This document shows positions 23,830 through 37,957 of a stretch of DNA of 64,000 bases, piece by piece. The stretch covers positions 37,928 to 101,927 of IMG/VR virus record IMGVR_UViG_3300036790_000386. One strand, given 5' to 3'. The position numbers and the translations under genes are program-made. The notes under the pieces were generated by a model, which worked only from the letters and a program-made list of their open reading frames with translations, was not told the DNA's origin and searched no databases. This stretch comes from a virus. Each line of letters opens with the position of its first letter. Position 1 is the first letter of the stretch.

Positions 23830-24930
23830 TTAGATACCATCGCGATATGCGACAGTTTCAGGATACACAACTTCCAGCACGCCAAGACGGCAGAAATATG
23901 TGGACTTGTGATAGATACCATCGTACTGGATAGGTGTACGCTGAAGCAGAGTCATTGGATAGCGAAGGCGCTCTGGATCTTTGGTGTAGGCAACCATACG
24001 ATCGACTGTACCAAGAGTACCAACAGTACCACCAATACCGGCACCAATCAGCCACTTCAATGGAAAGATCTTCAACTTGGCAACGCCTGAAGAAGTCAGC
24101 AGATTGTTTTCAAGAAGATAACGCAGAATAGATACGTTACCAGCAGCAGAGACAATCTGAGTAGAAACATAGGAATACTGAGCAGGAGGCAGAAGCAGGC
24201 GGTTGGGTGGGAATGCCCAGCCAGAGGTTGCCCATGTATTATTCAGAATTTCATTAACGTCATTCAGAATTTCTGGTGGAGTCTTGTTAACCCATTGAGT
24301 GGCATTAGTAGCACCAACAGCAACAGTAGCAACATTGGAAACTTGACCAAGATTTGCACTGGAGTTGTTATAATTAACAACACCATATTCAGCAAACTCA
24401 GTATCGCCGTAATACACCATTTCGTCAATGTCCATCTGGTGCTTCAGCTGCATACCGAAGAACTTTTGCTGATCAATAGGACGACCAACAAGAGCAGATG
24501 ACTCAAGTTCAAGAATGGTATACTTCAGTTCCATTGACCAGGGACGCAGAGCATGGGGAATCTTAGCAATATCAACTGAGATACCAGTAATCTGCGTAGT
24601 ATCTTTGCCGACCCAAGATTTACCGTTGCCAATGCCAACGCCAGAGGTACCGATGTTTGCGCCTGCCGCAGAACCATAGGTGGACAGTGTAAAGCTGGAC
24701 ACCTCGTTTGCAATGGTCACATCTTCTCGAAGATCAATATCACGACCCCAAGTAACAGCAGCCAGTGGTTCATGCAAACGCAGGTCTAAGCGCTCAAGCT
24801 CGCCAACTAGAAATGAACCAGTGGAGTCAGCAACCTTGCCATCTGCCATCTTAACACGCATTGGCAAAGTTTTGCCTCGCATATTACCTTGCGCATCATG
24901 CGAATATTCGCGTCCATCAAAAGTCATCAT
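23830..24930 (-). CDS. Major capsid protein (DUF2184-like, HK97 fold)
   Basis: FLVGELERLD, TWGRDIDLRED and C-terminal YPET..Y.DGI. Confidence 0.9.
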   Translation of the reverse strand: MMTFDGREYSHDAQGNMRGKTLPMRVKMADGKVADSTGSFLVGELERLDLRLHEPLAAVTWGRDIDLREDVTIANEVSSFTLSTYGSAAGANIGTSGVGIGNGKSWVGKDTTQITGISVDIAKIPHALRPWSMELKYTILELESSALVGRPIDQQKFFGMQLKHQMDIDEMVYYGDTEFAEYGVVNYNNSSANLGQVSNVATVAVGATNATQWVNKTPPEILNDVNEILNNTWATSGWAFPPNRLLLPPAQYSYVSTQIVSAAGNVSILRYLLENNLLTSSGVAKLKIFPLKWLIGAGIGGTVGTLGTVDRMVAYTKDPERLRYPMTLLQRTPIQYDGIYHKSTYFCRLGVLEVVYPETVAYRDGI

Positions 24931-24959: not shown

Positions 24960-25490
24960 TTAAAGATTGAACGCGATTTCAGCAATGCCATTAGAGTCCG
25001 CACCTGAATTAAAATAAGTCTGACCATCAGCGCTCAAACCAATGCAACCAGCAGCGGAAGTTGCTTCAAATCCACCCTGTGTATGCACGCCCGAAGAAGC
25101 CGAGCACCAAACATAAACAGTACCGCCCTTGACTGGAGTACCGACAACTGGAGCCATAATATAGCCAGATTTCAGTACGTCCATTGCATTGGCTGGAGTT
25201 GGCCCATTGCCTGAAGTAAAGCCCTGAGCAAAATCAGCTTCACCCCAGTTTTCAGTTGCAGTAACCTGCTGAATAGGAAACTGACGAACCACAACACCAG
25301 AAACAGAAGAAGTACCTGTATCACCAAGCTGCATGACACGAAATGTACCAGTTGCAGTATAGATACCGCATGTGCCAAAATAAATAATAGGATAAGTAGA
25401 GTCATTAATATTAGGCTCGATAGAAGCTGGATGCGTGCGGTTCACGTCACCTGCAAACCCCGCTCCCATACGATATTGAAACGCAACCAT
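24960..25490 (-). CDS. Minor capsid/decoration protein
   Basis: YRMGAGFAGDV.R pattern; lies upstream of the major capsid gene. Confidence 0.7.
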   Translation of the reverse strand: MVAFQYRMGAGFAGDVNRTHPASIEPNINDSTYPIIYFGTCGIYTATGTFRVMQLGDTGTSSVSGVVVRQFPIQQVTATENWGEADFAQGFTSGNGPTPANAMDVLKSGYIMAPVVGTPVKGGTVYVWCSASSGVHTQGGFEATSAAGCIGLSADGQTYFNSGADSNGIAEIAFNL

Positions 25491-25526: not shown

Positions 25527-27179
25527 TTAGCGAGTCGAGCCGCCGGTGCCCCAGATTTCGCTGGATTTTTCGTCGATACGCTTACGCAGATCGGCAAGAG
25601 AAGAAACCGTCCCAGCTTGATGGGCTGCCGAGTGTGGATTACCGCCAGTAACCTGAACAAAGGCTTGATTATTACGGTCACGGTAGACAGAAGCCAACGC
25701 ACGATAAGTTGTTCCAATGGAATCGCAAGTCATGCGTCGCATGTCGGCTCCACCAGTAATATTTTCCAAATCAGTAGCTTTCTCCATATCATGAGAAACA
25801 TGATTCAAAATACGGCGACGGAAACCGCAAATAGCGGTAACAGCCGAAACTGGATTTGAACGAGAATCAAAAGTTGGAACGCGAACACCTGGAACAATGA
25901 TTTCAGCATCAGCTACAACTGCTTCCCAAAGACTCTGGAGACGTACAGCAGCATCAGCAGCGCGACGACGCTTATCACCAACTCCAGCATTAACTGCTGA
26001 AGAAGAACCGGCTGGAGCTTCTGCACCAAATCCGCGTGGAATTTTCTTTGACGCAACTGTCACCGGACCTGGATGATCGCTTTCAATTGCAGTGCCTTCG
26101 TTGTAATCAGCGCCTTCATAGATACCTTTATTAGGCTCATGATTATACTGAGGTGTTTCACGATGCAAATTAGCTTCATCTCCGAAATTACCCATACCAT
26201 CACCTTCGGTGTCTTCTCCGCCACCTTCGGCCCCAACTTCAAGCTCTCCACCTTCATTGCCTTCTTCACCAATACCAAGAGCTTGGCAAATTTGGCCTAC
26301 TTGGCTTTTTAGTGCTTCAACATCAGCTGCAACTGTCGCAAGATCAGCAGTTGGAGCAGCTGGTGCAGCAGCAGGCGCTGCCGCTGGAGTAGGTAAAGTA
26401 GAAGTATTTGGAACTGTAGGCGGCATAGCATCTTCTCCTGCAGAATGTGGGTGTAAATGAATATGAGTATGATCGCCGTCACCAGAAGTAAGTTCTGCTG
26501 CTTTCTTCTGACCTTCAACGGCCAAATTTGCTAATTCGCCGGCATCGGTGGTCTTTGTAGCTTTAGACAAAAGTTCACCGATCCAACCAAATTTATTCTC
26601 AGCTGGCATTGATTGATTCTCCACTTGAGTTGGTGCACTGTCGTAAATTCGACATTTTGGTCCACACCGAGCAGAATCAACCAATGCGACATGATTGCCG
26701 ATTATATTAATCTGCCTCGCTTTACCCGGACCCATTTGCTCGTATTCAGCATCATAGCCACAAGATAGCTCTCTCTTAGATTTATTGAGAACCATATCAA
26801 TAGCTAATTCATCAGTAATCAAAAGATCCGCTAGAACTACATCATCTTGTACTCCAGTCCCTCGGCGTGGATTTAAAACTACTCCGACAGCTAAATCACG
26901 CCAATTTTCAGGTGTAACATCAACTACTGAGCCATCTTGAGTTGGATGCTCAATAACAAATGGTTTACCTGAATAAGAGGCTAAAGACTCTGGTTTAAAT
27001 ACTTCTTCAGGCGGACGATCAACATGAATAAAACCATTACCATCTGGCTGAAATGGCATTTCGTCTGAAGTATAAAGTTGAACTCCTGTACGCGCTATAA
27101 TCGTATCTTTACACAGCAGAAAACCTTCTGGTGTTTTGAACATTTTATCGCTAAGTTGCTCAGTGAAATAAAATCGCAT
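25527..27179 (-). CDS. Prohead protease/scaffold (DUF2213-like)
   Basis: TPEGFL, ARTGVQ.Y, ELSCGY and NHVALV..ARCG motifs. Confidence 0.9.
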   Translation of the reverse strand: MRFYFTEQLSDKMFKTPEGFLLCKDTIIARTGVQLYTSDEMPFQPDGNGFIHVDRPPEEVFKPESLASYSGKPFVIEHPTQDGSVVDVTPENWRDLAVGVVLNPRRGTGVQDDVVLADLLITDELAIDMVLNKSKRELSCGYDAEYEQMGPGKARQINIIGNHVALVDSARCGPKCRIYDSAPTQVENQSMPAENKFGWIGELLSKATKTTDAGELANLAVEGQKKAAELTSGDGDHTHIHLHPHSAGEDAMPPTVPNTSTLPTPAAAPAAAPAAPTADLATVAADVEALKSQVGQICQALGIGEEGNEGGELEVGAEGGGEDTEGDGMGNFGDEANLHRETPQYNHEPNKGIYEGADYNEGTAIESDHPGPVTVASKKIPRGFGAEAPAGSSSAVNAGVGDKRRRAADAAVRLQSLWEAVVADAEIIVPGVRVPTFDSRSNPVSAVTAICGFRRRILNHVSHDMEKATDLENITGGADMRRMTCDSIGTTYRALASVYRDRNNQAFVQVTGGNPHSAAHQAGTVSSLADLRKRIDEKSSEIWGTGGSTR

Positions 27180-27526: not shown

Positions 27527-27994
27527 TTAATGATAATAAACATCAAGATGAGTAGCAGCGGTCAAAGTTGTATGATCACCATCAGCAATAGCAGAAGTCA
27601 CACAATACCCTGTAAATGGGCCAACACCATACTGGTCATTCAGAATTGTGCGGCTAACACCGGAAGGAATAACAACCAAAGCAGACACAGTTGTCAAGGA
27701 ACAAGTTGGCGCCGCAGTTGTGCCAGAATAGAAATGCACAAACTCTTGAGCACCAGCTGTTGCTTGAATATCATAAACTGCATTACCTGTCGTAGACAAA
27801 AGACTGGTAATTGTAACACCAGAAACTGCAACAGTATCCTGAATTTTCAACCCTGGACCAGTCGGTACAAGACCAAAATTCTGCTGAGGAGAACCAAGTG
27901 CTGGTGGAGTGTATGCATAAGCACTTGCTAGGCCAAAGCTGGTTGTAAGAGCCGCCATAGCAGCACCCACGCCAAAATTAAGAATTTTCGACAT
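27527..27994 (-). CDS. Beta-rich protein with signal-peptide-like N-terminus (paralogue A)
   Basis: Clear similarity to 28028..28507. Confidence 0.65.
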   Translation of the reverse strand: MSKILNFGVGAAMAALTTSFGLASAYAYTPPALGSPQQNFGLVPTGPGLKIQDTVAVSGVTITSLLSTTGNAVYDIQATAGAQEFVHFYSGTTAAPTCSLTTVSALVVIPSGVSRTILNDQYGVGPFTGYCVTSAIADGDHTTLTAATHLDVYYH

Positions 27995-28027: not shown

Positions 28028-28507
28028 TTACTTGTAGTAAACATCTACATCATCGCCAGCAAGCAATGCTGTTGTGTCGCCATTAGCTGCAAGACCTGTT
28101 GCACAGAAACCAACACCGCCAGCAAAGCCAACACCATACTGGTCATTTAAAATGACACGCGTTGTTGCCGACGCTGGAAGCTCAACAAGAGCAGAAACTG
28201 TTGTCAATGAGCAAGTTGGCGCTGCTGTAACCCCAGCATATAGATGCAGCCAAACAGGTGAAGTACTAGGCACAAAACCTTCAACATCAAAAACAGTACC
28301 AGTCGAAGATTTAACAAGTACGGACATAACAGAAGTTGTGCTGACATTGTGAGTAACACTGAGACCAGAACCAGCAGGCTCAAGACCCATATTCTGCTGA
28401 GGCGAACCAAGACTTGGTGGTGTATAAGCATATGCGTTTGCAGTGCCCAAACCAACGGTAAGTGCTGCAACCGCAACGCCTTTACCAAAATTAAGAATCT
28501 TCGTCAT
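28028..28507 (-). CDS. Beta-rich protein with signal-peptide-like N-terminus (paralogue B)
   Basis: Shared KILNFG, AYAYTPP.LGSPQQN, AAPTCSLTTVSALV and ILNDQYGVG. Confidence 0.65.
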   Translation of the reverse strand: MTKILNFGKGVAVAALTVGLGTANAYAYTPPSLGSPQQNMGLEPAGSGLSVTHNVSTTSVMSVLVKSSTGTVFDVEGFVPSTSPVWLHLYAGVTAAPTCSLTTVSALVELPASATTRVILNDQYGVGFAGGVGFCATGLAANGDTTALLAGDDVDVYYK

Positions 28508-28804: not shown

Positions 28805-28978
28805 TTATCGATGAAAGAAAGGATGAAAATAAAATGGAGGCACAACATAAACAGGAGGTGCAACATAAATAGGCGCGGAACCATAATTACACTCTGTTCC
28901 AACAAACGAAGTCTCACATTCTGCAACACAACCAGACAAAGCCAAGCTAAAAACAAGTAATACAAGAATTTCAGCCAT
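28805..28978 (-). CDS. Small putative lipoprotein
   Basis: Hydrophobic N-terminus with LSGC lipobox-like motif; Pro-rich tail. Confidence 0.4.
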   Translation of the reverse strand: MAEILVLLVFSLALSGCVAECETSFVGTECNYGSAPIYVAPPVYVVPPFYFHPFFHR

Positions 28979-29732
28979 ACTCAGGCTCCTTGGTGCCATT
29001 TTGTATGTCTCCTAATTCAATTTTATCGGACATACTCAAAATTTCAAAAAGAGCGTCAATTCCAGCTTCAACATGTACGCCATTTTTAATCAATGGCTTC
29101 ACTTTAGAGGCTGGAATAATCAAATCAACCTGACTTCCACTTCTCAAAAAACTAAAACGCTCATTCTGATGGAAATAAGCATTCTGTTTAGTCGAAAATG
29201 GTGTAATTGTATTAACTTCATCATCTGCAATTTGAACTACATAGTATTTGAAGCCTAAAACAGGGCAAAAAACTGTATTCACAAACCTTGCGTTATAGAC
29301 TTCATAGCCGGAATACTTAAAATTAACAATATCTTTTAAAATATCATTTTCAGTCATAAGCATCGGCGCGTTATAGCTCAAAATTGAAGGCAAAGCACGG
29401 TAATAGACAATTCCGTTTGTCGGCATACGATTAATATGCACATCGTAATAAGTCATAAAAATTCCAGCTACAAAATAGCTTTTTTCTTCAAGTTCTTCAT
29501 CAACTATTTCACTAATTTTGTGATGTTTTCCTTTGAATTCTATAGAACCGTCAGCTGAAACTTCTGAAAGATAAAGCAAAACACCATCAGCAGGTGAATA
29601 CAACACTGACGAGTCCATAATTCGGCTTCTGTATGGATCGCGAAAGAACAAAACCTCCGACATGAGCCTTTCAGAAACTGGATTAAATGCTTCACTGGTC
29701 TCTTTTGCCCAATCTTCAAGATTTTTAGCCAT
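28971..29732 (-). CDS. Phosphatidylserine decarboxylase-family (pyruvoyl) enzyme
   Basis: FFRDP, SPADG, IFMTYYDVHINRMP and SGSQVD (GS autocleavage site). Confidence 0.85.
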   Translation of the reverse strand: MAKNLEDWAKETSEAFNPVSERLMSEVLFFRDPYRSRIMDSSVLYSPADGVLLYLSEVSADGSIEFKGKHHKISEIVDEELEEKSYFVAGIFMTYYDVHINRMPTNGIVYYRALPSILSYNAPMLMTENDILKDIVNFKYSGYEVYNARFVNTVFCPVLGFKYYVVQIADDEVNTITPFSTKQNAYFHQNERFSFLRSGSQVDLIIPASKVKPLIKNGVHVEAGIDALFEILSMSDKIELGDIQNGTKEPEYG

Positions 29733-30645
29733 CTTCAGATCTGCCTGGTTGAAAATCAAAGTAATTTAAATGCATTACAAGACAAGAAAGAGCAGCACCA
29801 GACTTACCAAATTCAGAAATATTAAAAACAACAGAATCCATACTATTGTCAGCAGCAAATTTTCCAACAAAATCGACCAAATCACGTTCGACCTTGTATT
29901 TATCATCCGAAATCTTTAACTTTGAAATAGAAGAACCAACAACAACAAGACGCCTAACCCTAAGACAGTTTGTTGCTCCAGCTGCAACCAATTCTGAAGG
30001 AGCAGAAATGACTTCAGTGACTTTTTCAAGCTCTTTAAGTTCTTTTGCATCAATCTCTCCTATGGCTACAACTGTTTTCTCCTTTGTTAAAGGAAACAAA
30101 ACGCAGTCAAGGTGATATGCTTCAGGATTTTTAAGTCTAATTCCTATAATATTCATATTATAAGTTTCTTCAAACCATCTAATAGCAGCTGCATTTGTCC
30201 TCATGCCATAAGACATAGCATAATTATTGCCACCAAGATATTTACAGTCTGCTTCTCCTTCAAAATACTTTGGTGCAAGATCAACTACATCTTTAATTCC
30301 AAGCATTTTTAAGAATTCAAAGCCTGGTCTTGTTTCACCTTGACGCGGCGGTGAACGAAAATTCGCCACCACCACAGTGTACTCTGGCAAATGAGGCAAA
30401 ACCACACCAAGATTGGCCACAAAAGGTTGGTCCTGAAGACCAGCATATGAAGGAAGCAAATAAACAAGAGAAATAGAAGACAAAAAATTATAAAAATCGA
30501 GAAACTGCCGTAAAGCAATTGACTTATCAATCTTTCTCTCAGTTGGAGAAAGCTCTTGCATGAAAACATTATTAGGGCTTCCAGAGTCTAAAAAGAATGG
30601 AGGACTCATTAAGAAGCAAGGATAATTTACTTTATTAAAATCCAT
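29725..30645 (-). CDS. Amidinotransferase/guanidino-group-modifying enzyme (pentein fold)
   Basis: GLQDQPFVAN, RQGE, FEGEAD, YHLDC and SEFGKSGAALSCL (catalytic D/H/C). Confidence 0.85.
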   Translation of the reverse strand: MDFNKVNYPCFLMSPPFFLDSGSPNNVFMQELSPTERKIDKSIALRQFLDFYNFLSSISLVYLLPSYAGLQDQPFVANLGVVLPHLPEYTVVVANFRSPPRQGETRPGFEFLKMLGIKDVVDLAPKYFEGEADCKYLGGNNYAMSYGMRTNAAAIRWFEETYNMNIIGIRLKNPEAYHLDCVLFPLTKEKTVVAIGEIDAKELKELEKVTEVISAPSELVAAGATNCLRVRRLVVVGSSISKLKISDDKYKVERDLVDFVGKFAADNSMDSVVFNISEFGKSGAALSCLVMHLNYFDFQPGRSEDG

Positions 30646-30881
30646 TAGCGTTCCCAGCCCTTATATCTCTCATAAGCATCATACCAATTATTTAAGGCAC
30701 GCTTCCAATTAGAATGTAAAACTCGCAGATTATAGCTTAAATGATCAACTTGCCATCTTAACGCTATTGCCCTTGACCATCCATATTCTTTAACAAGAGC
30801 TTCAGTAAATTCACTGTCTGCTCTTTGAAGTAATACATACGCTTCTGATAATGTTTGCTTTGTTTGGGGCATTCTCATCAA
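30645..30881 (-). CDS. Hypothetical protein
   Basis: Translationally coupled ORF. Confidence 0.5.
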   Translation of the reverse strand: MMRMPQTKQTLSEAYVLLQRADSEFTEALVKEYGWSRAIALRWQVDHLSYNLRVLHSNWKRALNNWYDAYERYKGWER

Positions 30882-31381
30882 CCCATAAAAAAGGGCTTGA
30901 CGTAAAATTTTCCAGGATATGCAAAATTAAATTTACTATCCTCAAACAACTTAACAAATTTTCCTTGCTCTTCTAAAGACAAATGATGAAAGTAAAATTT
31001 AAAAGTATTAAACTGAGAAGCTTTACCAAAGAAAGGACGTTTATAAAAATTATTTATCATTTCTTCATCAGTAATATCTTCAGGAGCATATAACGATTTT
31101 ACCAATTCACCTTTGGCATTCTTTCTAAAGACTGGACCTGAACTAGATCCAATTTCAATAGTTTCACCATATTGTAGATTTGGTAAATTAACATAGGCTT
31201 TATAATTCTTATCTGTTGGAACTATTTTGTGACCAGCTTCAACTGCCCACAAAAATCTACCTGAACTAATTCCACCACAATAAGAACAAATATGTTCAAT
31301 GCTCCATTTATCTTTGTTTATAACACCACTTATAGCATTTTCAATTCTACGAGGGCAGGTAAACATTGAAGTTACTCCCAC
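30878..31381 (-). CDS. Hypothetical protein with Cys motifs
   Basis: CPRR, CSYCG, PTDKNYKAY and KFYF.HLS. Confidence 0.6.
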   Translation of the reverse strand: MGVTSMFTCPRRIENAISGVINKDKWSIEHICSYCGGISSGRFLWAVEAGHKIVPTDKNYKAYVNLPNLQYGETIEIGSSSGPVFRKNAKGELVKSLYAPEDITDEEMINNFYKRPFFGKASQFNTFKFYFHHLSLEEQGKFVKLFEDSKFNFAYPGKFYVKPFFMG

Positions 31382-31610: not shown

Positions 31611-31820
31611 TTACTCTGAAATTGTATACAAGCAGTTACCACAAAATCGCTCTTTCATTAGCGGTTTGAAGTTCTTTTTGCATAAGGGACAAATTTTAGA
31701 TTCAATTGTAGGTTTTGCCTTGGAGGCTGCAACTGAAGCTGCATTATATGCTTCAGTTGCTTTAGTTTTAAGATGTTCAATCGTTTTTGGAAACTTTCTA
31801 TTAGACCGCTTTATTGACAT
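31611..31820 (-). CDS. Small zinc-finger protein
   Basis: CPLC...CGNC. Confidence 0.5.
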   Translation of the reverse strand: MSIKRSNRKFPKTIEHLKTKATEAYNAASVAASKAKPTIESKICPLCKKNFKPLMKERFCGNCLYTISE

Positions 31821-33981
31821 TGCCGATCTCCAACCAGCGCTTTAAGCCAGGGATATCAGTCTCACGAATTGAGAGAATGTTGCCGCCACCAGGATATGAA
31901 TTTCTGTACGCTGCAACAGCATCGGCGGAAGATTTAAAGCCAAGCATAATCTTGTGTTCATCAAAACTATTAGCATCGGCCCCAGATGTATTCATCTTGC
32001 CTTGGTTAACAATCCAAGCACGAGTTGAATCCGCATGCGGCCCCACGAAACAGTCCATCCCTTCACCAAATCCTTCGGCGGATCTGGTGTTTCTGATGTA
32101 TCCATAATCAGCTGCCAAAGGAGGAAACCCATCAAATCTAATCTGACCAATAAAGTTTTCTAAAAAGATAGGCAAACCTTGAAAATCAATTAAAGGCATA
32201 TTGTTAATAGCAGTAGCTACGTCATCGATGGCTTCTGTAAGCGAAGAAGTTGAACCGTTATTCATGATTCCTTTAGGGGATTCATATTTTTCATAAGTTG
32301 CATTAATGGTGCCTGGGTTTTCAATAGGAAGACCAGGACCTTCATTTACACCAAACGGACCTGTAGCAATATCATCAGTTGCGTCTGGCTTAACTTCAGG
32401 AGCAGCAGATGGAATTGGTGTTGATTCGCCAGACAACTTATTTAAGTGGCCCGGTTGAACGCCAGGAGCACCTGTTGGAGAACCATTATTAGGCGATTGA
32501 GTGCTATTTGCACCAGGCTCAGTTGGCGCTGTAGCTGCCATTGTTAGACTTGGCGGCATTTTACCTTTAGCCGCAGCAATTTCAGCATCAGTAATATTGG
32601 TCCACAAGCCATTAACAATAGATGCTTGTTTCAGTTCCTTCATGGCTGTAGATGCGTCAACTAGGCCAGCTTCCCAAGCAGAGAGTACGGCAGATGTTGT
32701 CTGAGCAGAAGCTGTTGCACGTTCTGTTTCAGAAAGCTGCCAAAGAGGATTGAAAACAAAATTAAAATCTTCAGGAATTGGAATACCTTCTGATTTTGCC
32801 ATCGCACGGTATGTGCGATCAATCATCGGGCGAAGTTCACGTTCCTGACGCTGGCGGATGCCGTCATAGTAGTTGCGCATGTCAGATTCGCCAGTTGAGT
32901 TTAAGCCGGCGGGAGACTGACCAAAAAGACGAACCAGTGGAATTTGCAGAGCACCCGAAATCTGCTGCCCAAAGTGAATAAGAGCATCAGCAATGCCGGA
33001 GAAAGATGTTCCAGCGCTAACTTGCGCAGCAAAATCATCTTCACTATCGATAAGTGTTATACCTTCAATACCTTGGTAACGGCGCATCATTTCAACGTAC
33101 TGTTGAAGCTGATTTACCTGCATGCCACCAGCAGCTACAATTTCTCTGAGGCGAGCAATCTTGAGCGTACGAATATATGATTTGTAAACAAGCTGTGCTG
33201 CGCCATTAGTTGCGGAGTCAAATGCGATAAGGCGATCGTAGAGTCTTTCCACAACGGAAATGCCCCACATATTCTCCATAACTCGTTGCCAGTAGGGAAG
33301 TCTAACACCTTCGTGACGCAAGACTCTTGAATGGTGGATACGCATACCTTCAAAAGAGACACCCGAACCTGACGCGATAACCCAGTAAGATCTTGGTACA
33401 AGCGAATCGTCCCCAACACCGCGAATCATATGTTGAAGATCTGGTTCGACCATCCAACGATCAAATACCATTAAGCCACGAAAAGAGCCACGACCGATGC
33501 GTTCAATATCAAGAGGATTACGTGGGTCTTGACCATCAATCATAATGGCAGATAAAGCTCCACCATAAAGACGACCCCAACGAATTGTATCGTTAATAGC
33601 GTACCAAATGCCCCACTTAGTAGCAGCCGCTTCAAGTTTTTTAATCGCGCCTGGAGGCATCTCAGAAGTAATAGTGATGCCCATCTTAGTCATATCATCA
33701 GCAATAGCATCAATCGCTACACCAACGATCCATGATCCTCTATGAATCCATTCTAAAAGAGTTCTGTCCCGCGTAACAGGAAGAAATCCATAAGTAGAAT
33801 CTGAAAGTGCGTTATTGGTACCAAGGCCAAGATTTAATGAAAAATTTTGGAAAGTATCACCGACTTTAGCACTAATTAATCCATCGGGATTGACGGTAGT
33901 CCCTTGTGCGCGAGTCTGTTGTTTATCAGACCGCGCTGAAACTCTATAACGAGGCTTTGTTGGTTTCTCTTCTTCAGCCAT
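31801..33981 (-). CDS. Portal protein (DUF1073-like) with C-terminal inorganic pyrophosphatase-like domain
   Basis: WGRLYGG and IPLVRLFGQSPAGLNSTGESDMRNYYD; C-terminal DYGYI..T, MDCFVGP and FDEHKIMLGF. Confidence 0.9.
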   Translation of the reverse strand: MAEEEKPTKPRYRVSARSDKQQTRAQGTTVNPDGLISAKVGDTFQNFSLNLGLGTNNALSDSTYGFLPVTRDRTLLEWIHRGSWIVGVAIDAIADDMTKMGITITSEMPPGAIKKLEAAATKWGIWYAINDTIRWGRLYGGALSAIMIDGQDPRNPLDIERIGRGSFRGLMVFDRWMVEPDLQHMIRGVGDDSLVPRSYWVIASGSGVSFEGMRIHHSRVLRHEGVRLPYWQRVMENMWGISVVERLYDRLIAFDSATNGAAQLVYKSYIRTLKIARLREIVAAGGMQVNQLQQYVEMMRRYQGIEGITLIDSEDDFAAQVSAGTSFSGIADALIHFGQQISGALQIPLVRLFGQSPAGLNSTGESDMRNYYDGIRQRQERELRPMIDRTYRAMAKSEGIPIPEDFNFVFNPLWQLSETERATASAQTTSAVLSAWEAGLVDASTAMKELKQASIVNGLWTNITDAEIAAAKGKMPPSLTMAATAPTEPGANSTQSPNNGSPTGAPGVQPGHLNKLSGESTPIPSAAPEVKPDATDDIATGPFGVNEGPGLPIENPGTINATYEKYESPKGIMNNGSTSSLTEAIDDVATAINNMPLIDFQGLPIFLENFIGQIRFDGFPPLAADYGYIRNTRSAEGFGEGMDCFVGPHADSTRAWIVNQGKMNTSGADANSFDEHKIMLGFKSSADAVAAYRNSYPGGGNILSIRETDIPGLKRWLEIGNVNKAV

Positions 33982-34521: not shown

Positions 34522-37500
34522 TTAAATGTGTTTGTTTAAGGCTCGCGTACCTTTAGGTACGATCCAAGTTCCTGGCTTTAAGACTCTTTCTTCAAGATCG
34601 CACGGAAAAGTAATTTTTGATGGAGAAGATAAAAATAGAATTTCTTCATCAGCTTTCGGCTGTTCACGTCCACGACGAATTCTAATTTCATTCATGAGAT
34701 GAACTACCTTTGCAACCTCTACTCTTTCTTTCCAACTTTCATATCTTGCAGTTTGTATTGCAAGCTGTTGTTCTTTGTCAATTTTAGCTTTACGTGCAAG
34801 TTTCTGCCATGTGGCCCATGTGCCACGACATGAAGTGACAATAAGACCAGCAACACACCTAGCAAGGTAATCAGATCCAGAGGAAAATACAGAATCGCGA
34901 CCTGCTTTAGTTATTGAACGTTCAAGATCGCCCATTTGATTGAGCATCTTAGCGTTTTCTAAGAGTTCTACTTCACCAGCCGCCAAAATTGGCATGAAAT
35001 CACGATAGATTTCAGGAAGCGTTAAAGAAGTTGGACTATAGATGATACCGTGAACGGAGAAATATTCTTTGGGCCAATTTCCACCAAAGTGATCACCTTC
35101 AATCTTTGCGATGCCATAGCTGCGCATAATAGAGCATATGTCAGCAATAGTTTTTTCAAGACTTTCTTGAATCGAATAATCTTTAACAAAATCTAACATC
35201 GCTACATTATCTTCAGCCATATGTGCGATAGCAAATGCTGGCCTCTCTGACGTTGACCCCGGTACGGCGAAGAAAGCAGAGTAAACTATGTTATTTGAAG
35301 GTGGCAGTTCAAGCCGGCCTTCAACTACGCAACGACCAATAACCCCACGCGAAGCATAAGAGGATTTAGTGAAGCTAGCTTTAATTTCATTCCACTTATA
35401 GCGCGCAAACGCCAAAGAGCAAACACAATCATCGTAAAGACCCTCGGGTGCTGTATATTTGATACCAGCGCGAGTGATTTCATAAGTGAAATCCTGCATT
35501 TCAGATTTAATCGGACCATCAGGAAAATGCACTTCATGAGTCTGAACCGACATCGCCAAACCTTCCATGAGGTTTTGCTTGGATGACGGATTTAAAATAT
35601 AACCTTCAAAGTTTTCGTAACCACCTTCTTGGAGTGACTCTAAAACTGGATCACCTAGCCCTGAACCATCAACAACACAAGGAGTGAGGTCACCAACGAT
35701 TTCTCTAACGAGTTTAACTGACTCTTTCCAAGATTTATTTTTCCAGCGATCAAAGTGGCAAACATAGCCATCTCGATCAAGACCAATGATAACGAACCAA
35801 GTTTTTTTACGAGCTAGATCAACTCCCCAAGCCACAGGAGACTCAGAACTAAGATTAGCAACACAGCGTAAAATATGGTCTTCACCGAATGGATTACCGT
35901 AATCGTCACTCGGCTCTGCAAGATAAAGTTCACGAAATACCGCATCTGGAAGTTGCTCTTTTAGGGATTTAACTTCAGAGTCTGACATAACACCACCTTC
36001 GATGGCGTCAAAAATTGTCAGTTTTGCGTAATGTAAATCGCTATCTTCTTCGTCCATCGTGGACTCAGCAAGACGCGCCATATTATAGAACCAGTTACGC
36101 TTTCCTTTAACGTTACCAATAATGATAGCAGCGCCTTGAGTCGCTGAAAGCGTAGAGCGAACAGCGTGCCAGGATAATTCCTTTACACGCGAAGCTTCAT
36201 CAATAACAGCACCATAAACATCTTCACCGAAAAGAGAATCAGGATTATCACCTGATTTAAACCAAAGAACAGCGCCATTCATTAAAGTTATTGTTTTGCG
36301 TTGTTCGTTAGTCATATAGCTGCCAGGAGTTAAATAGGTCTTCAACCGGCGAAAGGCAATATCAGCTTGATCTGAAATTGGAGCAACCCACCAATAGTTT
36401 CTATTGGTTGGGCCAAGCAAAGCCATTTCGGTAATCCAAACAATGGAACCGACGGTGTTATGTGTTGGTACGAAACCATTTGTAAGATACAGGTGTCTTG
36501 TATCTTCAACTTCAATACATTGCGCCTCCGCAATTCTAGAAAATTCAATTTTATTGAAAAATCTATTTCCAGTCTTCTTCATAGGCTTCATTAATTGAAG
36601 TTTACGAGGAAGCCTAAATGGAATAAGATTAGATGGCAAAATTAAAACTTGACGATAACGACCTCTACCGTGGCGCAATGTTCCAATTGGACTGCAATAT
36701 GACGCAGACTCATCATAAGTCTGTTTAACCATACCTCCTAAAGATTCTACAAGTTCTTTCACATCTTTTGCAAGTTGTTCAGAACTTTGTTCTAAGATTG
36801 GTTGGCCATGTTTATTTACTGATCCATCTGAATCCATAATTCCCTGAAGAATAGAAATTCTAATTTCCGTGGAATTATAAAGATAGGATATCGGAATAAA
36901 TTTCTGGTGAGAATAACAACCCCACAATTTCAGATTTTTTAAATAGCTGGCTATGTGTTGTTTTGCCTCTCTTATTTTAGCGGCAAATTTTCCACATGTA
37001 ATATGATAATCATACTGGTCTACGTGCCGCAAAAAATGGCCAGCAGGTAAGACTTTTTTAATTTCTTCTAAAATTTCAAAATCAGCAGAAGAAACTCTCA
37101 CAACTTCAGTTGTAAAATTGCCATCGCCAATAAGAATCCCTAAAAGATAAGGATCAATATCTATAGATTTAATTTCAAATTCAACTGGAGCACAATCAGG
37201 AACATATTGATACCTGAGCCAGCTACTTTTAAGATCTAAAAGTTCAGAAACTGCCCTAATTCTTGGTTTACCTTGATTATTATGAACTTCCCAAAGATGT
37301 TCTTTGTCGCATTCAACAATAGTTCCATCAACAAAAGTTATAGCATAAATCTCGCGCAAACCTTGCGGATGTATGGCTACAATTTTAGTAGCTTTACCAT
37401 TAGCTCCAAAAACAAAATCACCTACTTTCAGGTCTCCCATAAGTTTGGGACCTGCTGGTGTATAAATTTTTGAATCTAAAGGTTGAGCTTTACCTGCTTT

Positions 37501-37590
37501 TGAAGTTGCTTCAACTAGGGTAAATCGTTTGCCCGAAAATAGAGCGGCCTCTTGTTTCGGATACAACCCTGGTCTTGAATATTCAGGCAC
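34522..37590 (-). CDS. terL: Terminase large subunit with intein
   Basis: Split Walker A (SKAGK|T), WWVAP, Walker B VIDEA, GVDLAR and YDDCV. Confidence 0.92.
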   Translation of the reverse strand: MPEYSRPGLYPKQEAALFSGKRFTLVEATSKAGKAQPLDSKIYTPAGPKLMGDLKVGDFVFGANGKATKIVAIHPQGLREIYAITFVDGTIVECDKEHLWEVHNNQGKPRIRAVSELLDLKSSWLRYQYVPDCAPVEFEIKSIDIDPYLLGILIGDGNFTTEVVRVSSADFEILEEIKKVLPAGHFLRHVDQYDYHITCGKFAAKIREAKQHIASYLKNLKLWGCYSHQKFIPISYLYNSTEIRISILQGIMDSDGSVNKHGQPILEQSSEQLAKDVKELVESLGGMVKQTYDESASYCSPIGTLRHGRGRYRQVLILPSNLIPFRLPRKLQLMKPMKKTGNRFFNKIEFSRIAEAQCIEVEDTRHLYLTNGFVPTHNTVGSIVWITEMALLGPTNRNYWWVAPISDQADIAFRRLKTYLTPGSYMTNEQRKTITLMNGAVLWFKSGDNPDSLFGEDVYGAVIDEASRVKELSWHAVRSTLSATQGAAIIIGNVKGKRNWFYNMARLAESTMDEEDSDLHYAKLTIFDAIEGGVMSDSEVKSLKEQLPDAVFRELYLAEPSDDYGNPFGEDHILRCVANLSSESPVAWGVDLARKKTWFVIIGLDRDGYVCHFDRWKNKSWKESVKLVREIVGDLTPCVVDGSGLGDPVLESLQEGGYENFEGYILNPSSKQNLMEGLAMSVQTHEVHFPDGPIKSEMQDFTYEITRAGIKYTAPEGLYDDCVCSLAFARYKWNEIKASFTKSSYASRGVIGRCVVEGRLELPPSNNIVYSAFFAVPGSTSERPAFAIAHMAEDNVAMLDFVKDYSIQESLEKTIADICSIMRSYGIAKIEGDHFGGNWPKEYFSVHGIIYSPTSLTLPEIYRDFMPILAAGEVELLENAKMLNQMGDLERSITKAGRDSVFSSGSDYLARCVAGLIVTSCRGTWATWQKLARKAKIDKEQQLAIQTARYESWKERVEVAKVVHLMNEIRIRRGREQPKADEEILFLSSPSKITFPCDLEERVLKPGTWIVPKGTRALNKHI
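36457..37488 (-). mobile_element. Class 3 (Ala1, WCT) intein with LAGLIDADG homing endonuclease, 344 aa
   Basis: Starts AQPLDS and ends PTHN before Thr; block B HLW, block F QCIEV; LLGILIGDG and ILQGIMDSDG. Confidence 0.9.
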
Positions 37591-37777: not shown

Positions 37778-37957
37778 AAGGTCAACAGGGAGAGGAAACT
37801 AACGCACGAACCGCAACAAGAAAACCAACAAGCCGATATGGAAAAGAAGAAGCTTTCGCCTACAGATTTTCCCAATCTACAAATTGAACTTATACCAGAG
37901 TGGGAAAGGTGGCAATAAGATATGAGAGAAATCTTCAAGACAAACACTAAAAGTAGT

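Follow-up and report, generated by a model that had tools for sequence, protein, structure and literature searches.

The window analysed here is a stretch of 64,000 nucleotides of viral DNA (positions 37,928 to 101,927 of the IMG/VR virus record IMGVR_UViG_3300036790_000386; the whole source contig is 101,927 bp long and has direct terminal repeats). Two overlapping genes on its minus strand encode a protein of the pentein superfamily (P0001) and a member of the phosphatidylserine decarboxylase (PSD) family of pyruvoyl enzymes (P0003). An earlier note on this DNA described these products as an amidinotransferase and a pyruvoyl decarboxylase, encoded between the portal and prohead protease genes and carrying intact-looking catalytic motifs. 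The two genes do overlap and lie between portal and protease, and the motifs are intact in both proteins. The genes and their junction are as follows, with positions counted from the first letter of the window:

29725-30645, minus strand: stand-alone ArgZ/AgrE-like pentein P0001, 306 amino acids, ATG start; proposed L-arginine dihydrolase
28971-29732, minus strand: PSD-family pyruvoyl proenzyme P0003, 253 amino acids, soluble; proposed L-ornithine decarboxylase
29725-29732, minus strand: stop/start overlap of 8 nt, ATGGCTAA, read from the sequence, in which the ATG of the PSD-like gene lies over the stop codon of the pentein gene

The open reading frame (ORF) of the PSD-like gene was listed as 28971-29759, beginning at an upstream TTG. 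Translation almost certainly begins at the ATG at 29732 instead, because the N-terminus that it yields, MAKNLEDW..., agrees with those of 27 homologues. The resulting 8-nt overlap is predicted to couple the translation of the two genes. The ATG of the pentein gene, in turn, takes its A from the TAA stop codon of the preceding ORF (TAATG).

P0001 has no match in Pfam and matches phrog_12759 among the PHROG families (1.5e-53). Its NCBIfam scores are 61.6 bits for the DDAH model NF045659 (cut-off 300), 49.3 bits for the ArgZ domain model NF052232 (cut-off 450) and 46.6 bits for NF052231 (cut-off 1025). Among 177,635 PDB sequences, a profile built from 29 pentein homologues matches only ArgZ/AgrE chains (6e-30 to 3e-26); DDAH (at an E-value of 0.01) and agmatine deiminase lie beyond its reach. 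Structural comparison gave the same ranking. When the AlphaFold2 model of P0001 (predicted local distance difference test, pLDDT, 93.4) was searched with Foldseek, the ArgZ N-terminal domain and AgrE came out on top (E-value 1e-21, TM score 0.79-0.89). DDAH followed at about 1e-13 to 1e-10, a gap of eight to nine orders of magnitude from ArgZ, and the amidinotransferases SxtG, HsvA and AGAT ranked after both (3e-11 to 8e-9). The amidinotransferase label of the earlier note thus gives way: the profile finds nothing but ArgZ/AgrE in the PDB, and in the fold comparison amidinotransferases trail by ten orders of magnitude.

In HMMER alignments, the AgrE residues N22, D65, N71, R90, E93 and E118 correspond to N26, D72, N78, R101, E104 and E129 of P0001, and D122, R139, H168, D170, E254 and C264 to D133, R149, H178, D180, E278 and C288. 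N71 and C264 are the positions mutated in the PDB entries 6juz, 6jv1 and 6lrh, according to the entry titles. Among the 29 homologues, the Cys-His-Asp set (C288, H178, D180) and the Asn71-type residue N78 are invariant, and all other aligned residues except D133 are invariant or at least 90% conserved; D133 is kept in most homologues and is off the list of conserved columns. We take the equivalents of D72, R101 and R149 in DDAH and ArgZ structures to hold the alpha-amino and alpha-carboxylate groups of the substrate. The conservation of these three residues suggests that the substrate of the pentein is still an amino acid, so that a dihydrolase step would come first. N78, the counterpart of ArgZ N71, occupies a position where deiminases and DDAH presumably have Asp.

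Because profile, fold and residue evidence all point to ArgZ/AgrE, P0001 is better labelled arginine-dihydrolase-like than amidinotransferase, without being an equivalog-level member of the ArgZ family. It has the pentein fold and the active-site residues of ArgZ (Synechocystis Sll1336) and AgrE (Anabaena Alr4995; PDB 6juy-6jv1 and 6lrf-6lrh), but shares only about 22% identity with them, has about 25 additional residues that form a helix ahead of the catalytic Cys, and is a single 306-residue domain that lacks the fused C-terminal domain of the two-domain ArgZ/AgrE architecture. AgrE combines its dihydrolase and an enzyme that consumes ornithine in one fusion protein (title of entry 6lrg); here, the pentein is coupled to a proposed ornithine consumer, which is a decarboxylase rather than a cyclodeaminase, and the hosts of the genes are phages and many non-cyanobacterial phyla.

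P0003 matches the PSD family PF02666 (76.5 bits, 2.8e-21, cut-off 22; profile positions 7-193 of 198) and phrog_12670 (1.3e-34), and is labelled 'PSD family, mostly viral' in the protein atlas. Like the ArgZ match of P0001, this assignment is well clear of chance. Its D49, D97-V-H99 and G199-S200 align with D90, D142-x-H144 and G253-S254 of Escherichia coli PSD, where the roles of the catalytic residues D90, D142, H144 and S254 have been described (PMC7952604). The catalytic Asp, Asp-x-His and Gly-Ser are invariant in all 28 PSD-like homologues compared, and G199/S200 is the predicted self-cleavage site. A Foldseek search with the model of P0003 gave no match below an E-value of 1e-3; VIA-align matched it to the beta chain of E. 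coli PSD (Z 10-11.3), to PsiD (8.4) and to an arginine decarboxylase from Aspergillus (8.1). P0003 thus has the PF02666 beta core and the active site in common with E. coli PSD (6l06, 7cnw) and with the short-type bacterial enzymes (PRK05305/TIGR00164), but, set against a short-type PSD, it has a 4-residue deletion before Asp-x-His and additional residues in its central part.

What P0003 lacks is the membrane-binding part of these enzymes. Its top 19-residue Kyte-Doolittle window (1.26) falls within the beta core, the first 27 residues of the protein are hydrophilic, and the Kyte-Doolittle scan found no hydrophobic segment outside the core, in agreement with the earlier note, which saw no obvious anchor. 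Residue 28 of P0003 aligns with residue 69 of E. coli PSD, leaving helices H1-H3 of the latter (residues 1-45) without a counterpart. These three amphipathic helices bind the membrane in E. coli PSD, which needs acyl-chain contacts from its N-terminal helices and is inactive on soluble analogues (PMC7952604). A canonical short-type PSD from Hoeflea, whose genome also bears the two-gene module, has the FFRDP and HxNRxP motifs in common with the PSD-like family and carries a transmembrane hairpin (Kyte-Doolittle 1.83) where the PSD-like family has a hydrophilic helix. The motif DVHxNRxP, considered as a signature of the PSD-like subfamily, was rejected as HxNRxP also occurs in this canonical enzyme; another canonical-PSD ORF, from the high-GC locus L171, had been called in the wrong frame and was left out of the motif comparison. 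Four of the five module-bearing bacterial genomes compared encode a separate canonical PSD with a score of 150-197 bits, whereas the PSD-like copy reaches 80-95 bits. The PSD-like gene is a neofunctionalised paralogue of PSD, tied to a pentein gene, and a lipid substrate for its product is very unlikely.

It is accordingly barely credible that P0003 is a genuine PSD that boosts phosphatidylethanolamine synthesis in the host, with the pentein an unrelated neighbour. The protein does exceed the PF02666 cut-off, its relatives are annotated as PSD in GenBank phage records, and the HxNRxP and FFRDP motifs are common to short-type bacterial PSDs. However, the membrane-binding N-terminus that the E. 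coli enzyme requires is absent, a canonical PSD is present alongside in four of five genomes, all NCBIfam PSD equivalog cut-offs are missed by far (at best 66 bits against 183), and the gene nearly always stands beside a pentein gene. The earlier suggestion that the pair does something other than ordinary phosphatidylethanolamine synthesis is borne out by the same observations.

The distribution of the two genes was examined in viral and bacterial genomes. A single-sequence scan of viral contigs recovered Fletchervirus copies only, and an alignment query was used instead; with it, PSD-like genes were confirmed in IMG/VR (217) and in the species genomes of GTDB (146), and the best 80 of each set were kept. 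Of the 80 viral loci, 78 have the pentein gene as a direct neighbour on the same strand, and the remaining two are truncated by contig ends; among the 80 bacterial loci, 74 show this adjacency. The pentein gene comes first, touching or overlapping the PSD-like gene, in all 78 adjacent viral loci, and the PSD-like gene comes first in 73 of the 74 adjacent bacterial ones. Among cultured phages, tblastn searches with the two genes hit an identical set of 39 records of Campylobacter phages, and both genes were also found in six phages of Bacteroides thetaiotaomicron; the named Campylobacter phage records (such as NCTC12673, CP8, CPX and CP81) belong to Fletchervirus. The earlier note had proposed a survey of co-occurrence, with absence of joint conservation as the outcome speaking against its reading; the survey found the reverse: outside Fletchervirus, the two genes are neighbours in 153 of 161 loci.

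A maximum-likelihood tree was built for each protein from 72 non-redundant rows, 53 of them bacterial, the phage copies representing a marine T4-like lineage, the source phage and a sibling, Fletchervirus, and Bacteroides phage DAC19. In both trees, a single branch parts all phage copies from all 53 bacterial copies (SH-aLRT 90 and 95); these are quick tree searches with long Fletchervirus and DAC19 branches, and the sample is the best 80 hits. The bacterial part of the PSD-like tree mostly tracks taxonomy, which indicates that the bacterial copies are chromosomal genes rather than prophage cargo. The pentein and PSD-like genes are a co-evolving functional unit of near-obligate adjacency, shared by hundreds of phages and by bacteria of many phyla.

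Two bacterial loci have a pentein-size gene after the PSD-like gene (L071:4350-5381, 344 amino acids; L072:1322-2428, 369 amino acids) that gave no pentein match at an E-value of 1e-5, and the gene in L072 is also without a Pfam match; these may be divergent or replaced pentein partners. The actinomycete Allokutzneria oryzae TBRC 7907 carries three separate PSD-like/pentein modules (L073, L082 and L083).

The bacterial neighbourhoods bear on the type of metabolism involved. A MATE exporter gene follows the pair in 36 of the 80 bacterial loci, and an ABC exporter takes this place in others. Three Hyphomicrobiales loci, from Hyphomicrobium (L037), Hyphomicrobiales (L040) and Hoeflea sp. TYP-13 (L063), contain, in this order, an AguA-like gene, the PSD-like gene, the pentein gene, a SpeE-like aminopropyltransferase gene (PF01564 and PF17284; TIGR00417, 175 bits), an ABC exporter and ArgB, the acetylglutamate kinase (above the TIGR00761 cut-off). 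This cluster looks like a complete arginine-to-polyamine-and-export operon. After the pair, Verrucomicrobiales loci (L033-L078; for example, L034:9956-13887) have a MATE exporter gene on the opposite strand and, beyond it, genes for a PotD/PotF-like binding protein and for a sensor histidine kinase of the hybrid type; they could represent a circuit that makes, exports and senses a polyamine. Quite apart from homology, the SpeE, AguA, ArgB and PotD neighbours connect the pair with the metabolism of arginine and polyamines. The locus from a Thermoflexus metagenome-assembled genome (MAG; L068, 1-8204) is the sole 'bacterial' locus with the phage-type, pentein-first order; there, three GNAT acetyltransferase genes in tandem come after the pair, along with two genes for ABC transporters. 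This locus may encode a variant for acetyl-polyamines, or it may be a piece of viral DNA that was binned into the MAG.

These neighbourhoods also leave room for a different amine made by the same two-step logic, for instance, by conversion of arginine to citrulline and N-carbamoylputrescine, or of a guanidino amino acid that is modified or not found in proteins to a cation that is exported as a metabolite or signal. Coupling to MATE and ABC exporters would suit such a product, as would the Verrucomicrobiales binding protein and sensor kinase if the product were a secreted signal, and the GNAT genes of the Thermoflexus MAG and the failure of both proteins to reach the equivalog cut-off of any known enzyme are compatible with it. 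We regard this possibility as quite unlikely, because N78 matches ArgZ N71 rather than the Asp that we take to be typical of deiminases and DDAH, pointing to full dihydrolase chemistry, because the SpeE-like and PotD/F-like neighbours fit putrescine itself, and because the phages carry no exporter.

Two fungal enzymes provide mechanistic precedents for a decarboxylase of the PSD fold that acts on a free amino acid: PsiD, a soluble L-tryptophan decarboxylase (PMC11929908), and Ao-ADC1 of Aspergillus oryzae, an L-arginine decarboxylase without PSD activity (PMC12904898). Both (8x4q for PsiD; 9jer and 9jf5 for Ao-ADC1) are soluble and self-cleave to form the pyruvoyl group. They differ from P0003 in being fungal proteins of 440-480 residues with large N-terminal regions, only 12-13% identical to it (Z about 8); ornithine is not a substrate of either enzyme, and both lack a pentein partner.

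Taken together, these observations suggest a two-step route from L-arginine to putrescine that is independent of pyridoxal phosphate (PLP) and would be expressed with the late head genes. The pentein would act like the N-terminal domain of ArgZ/AgrE, its Cys-His-Asp site completely hydrolysing the guanidino group of free L-arginine to give L-ornithine, CO2 and two NH3. The PSD-like proenzyme would then self-cleave at G199/S200 to form its pyruvoyl cofactor and, as a soluble enzyme, decarboxylate ornithine to putrescine, in parallel to the free-amino-acid decarboxylases PsiD and Ao-ADC1. Arginine to ornithine to putrescine is the only sequential scheme that fits an amino-acid-binding pentein with a decarboxylase as its partner. 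We put the probability that the pair carries out this conversion at roughly 0.55.

Several points weigh against it. Neither the DDAH nor the ArgZ equivalog thresholds are reached by P0001, and the roles given above to R101 and R149 are carried over from DDAH structures. The model of P0003 has only moderate confidence (pLDDT 76). Ao-ADC1, the only PSD-family enzyme on record with a basic amino acid as its substrate, decarboxylates arginine rather than ornithine; the PSD-like-first order of the bacterial genes fits a route through agmatine, and the AguA-like gene beside the Hyphomicrobiales cluster suggests that agmatine is present there. The idea that the module fills a gap left by canonical arginine or ornithine decarboxylases finds no general support: SpeA-sized PF02784 ORFs occur in most of the 30 module-bearing genomes (many of them incomplete MAGs), and a single LysA-sized decarboxylase of the alanine racemase fold was the only one found in just four Verrucomicrobiales genomes among the 30.

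Some of these points would be accommodated if the steps were reversed, the PSD-like protein being a pyruvoyl arginine decarboxylase and the pentein then converting agmatine to putrescine, as an 'agmatine dihydrolase', or to N-carbamoylputrescine. Ao-ADC1 shows that the PSD family can decarboxylate arginine, and its fold is matched by P0003; the bacterial gene order and the AguA-like (agmatine-deiminase-like) neighbour agree with this sequence of reactions as well. Such a route nevertheless seems unlikely. The pentein keeps R101, R149 and D72, which presumably contact the amino-acid end of the substrate and would be superfluous in an enzyme for agmatine, and its profile finds ArgZ/AgrE and no agmatine deiminase. 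SpeA is already encoded in many module-bearing genomes, and P0003 is nearer in fold to E. coli PSD (Z 10-11) than to Ao-ADC1. The order in which arginine is first hydrolysed to ornithine is therefore preferred here.

The phage contexts of the pair are diverse. The majority of the viral loci come from a single marine T4-like lineage, in which a gp21-type protease and the gp23 capsid protein are followed by the pentein, the PSD-like protein and PhoH. Bacteroides phage DAC19 has the pair among replication genes, between primase/dUTPase and a homing endonuclease. In Fletchervirus (L002-L007 and L181), the only lineage seen with a split pair, both genes are found in every matching record, about 43 kb apart: in NCTC12673, the pentein gene lies between gp41 and gp45, with the PSD-like gene about 43 kb away. 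The Fletchervirus PSD-like gene adjoins a homing endonuclease and GroES, and the pentein gene has its own annotated terminator. The placement of the pair inside the capsid module, as claimed in the earlier note, thus holds for the source phage and the large marine T4-like lineage but not for DAC19 and Fletchervirus, and a universal capsid-module position was rejected.

Polyamines are needed for phage replication and provide a large share of the counter-charge of packaged DNA. Late in infection, the phage might benefit from the pair through a supply of polyamine counter-ions for replicating or packaged DNA, or through support of translation. The earlier note had proposed a polyamine or guanidino cation for DNA condensation. 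A polyamine-type product is the best-supported part of this proposal; as the pair lies outside the head module in DAC19 and Fletchervirus, a capsid-specific or DNA-condensing role is a matter of inference.

The other function raised in the earlier note, modification of virion DNA, virion protein or host lipid, found no support. Such a role might consist in decarboxylating a base-linked amino acid or in deiminating arginines of the capsid. The head-module position in the source phage and the marine lineage would fit it, as would the replication-gene neighbourhoods in DAC19 and NCTC12673 and the unusual DNA of Fletchervirus, in which deoxyguanosine is replaced by deoxyinosine (PMC13091555). We nonetheless consider it very improbable. 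Only two genes recur, accompanied by no hypermodification transferase, kinase or glycosylase; the bacterial version is chromosomal, follows taxonomy and stands with exporters and polyamine genes rather than with DNA-modifying enzymes; and the pentein keeps the residues for a free amino acid substrate. A link to the deoxyinosine DNA of Fletchervirus was also considered and dropped, as bacteria and many phages that show no sign of this trait have the pair too.

Phages are already known to carry pyruvoyl ornithine and arginine decarboxylases of another fold, derived from SpeD (PMC9992855, PMC10407285). These enzymes and the pathway of chlorovirus PBCV-1 resemble the route proposed here in that a putrescine-type amine is made in a viral context by PLP-independent pyruvoyl decarboxylases. 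The SpeD-derived enzymes, however, have the S-adenosylmethionine decarboxylase fold rather than the PSD fold, and no arginine dihydrolase is involved. Literature searches for the pair found no paper describing it or its arginine-to-putrescine route, and PSD-family or dihydrolase genes are unmentioned in both the survey of viral polyamine enzymes (PMC9992855) and the paper on SpeD-derived enzymes (PMC10407285); the pair was thus passed over by a systematic survey of virus-encoded polyamine enzymes in 2023. In GenBank and IMG, the genes are labelled 'phosphatidylserine decarboxylase' and 'amidinotransferase' or 'DDAH', and surveys of auxiliary metabolic genes in the ocean take such labels as lipid or creatine metabolism (PMC11360552).

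The pair probably represents polyamine biosynthesis by phages with enzymes of known superfamilies that have a new activity. If so, it would constitute a new two-enzyme route to putrescine, extend the PSD fold to a new class of substrate beyond the two fungal cases, and be one of the auxiliary metabolic modules with a wider distribution among uncultured marine T4-like phages. More tentatively, and as a possibility short of even odds, the whole may be an unrecognised PLP-independent pathway with an ornithine decarboxylase of the PSD fold: in at least ten bacterial phyla, it would be coupled to exporters and possibly yield a secreted polyamine, and at least four unrelated phage lineages would have long kept a reordered version, expressed with head or replication genes, as a supply of DNA counter-ions. 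The exporter-coupled bacterial version poses a separate question, that of secreted polyamines. The presence of both genes in cultured phages, Fletchervirus of Campylobacter and the DAC phages of B. thetaiotaomicron, makes the proposal directly testable.

The surroundings of the pair in the source phage form a late operon, the other recognised parts of which are:

34522-37590, minus strand: large terminase, with a LAGLIDADG-type insertion
between the large terminase and portal genes, minus strand: two small ORFs
31801-33981, minus strand: portal (PF06381, 2e-95)
between the portal and pentein genes, minus strand: three small ORFs
between the PSD-like and prohead protease genes, minus strand: five small ORFs
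25527-27179, minus strand: DUF2213 prohead protease
24960-25490, minus strand: cement protein
23830-24930, minus strand: major capsid protein

The sole convincing terminator-like site lies upstream of the terminase gene, so the pair appears to be co-transcribed with the head genes. A sibling phage (L088), with a 90% identical capsid protein, has the same order of terminase, portal, pair, protease, cement and capsid genes. No third conserved gene was found near the pair, the small ORFs at 30645-31381 not being kept even in this sibling, and the 10 scanned non-structural ORFs of the phage include no further polyamine gene.

Between the pair and the protease gene, two of the minus-strand ORFs (27527-27994 and 28028-28507), of about 155 amino acids each, are paralogues of one another; they match no family and are duplicated in the sibling phage too. 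The large terminase, of 1022 amino acids, contains an internal LAGLIDADG/Hom_end homing-endonuclease region at about residues 232-291 that looks like an intein. Its alignment to the terminase of the sibling spans only 644 residues, and the insert is seemingly missing there. At its C-terminus, the portal protein carries an additional domain (residues 598-718) that matches PF18823, 'InPase' (2.8e-19), as well as PHROG families of minor head proteins and giant virion proteins.

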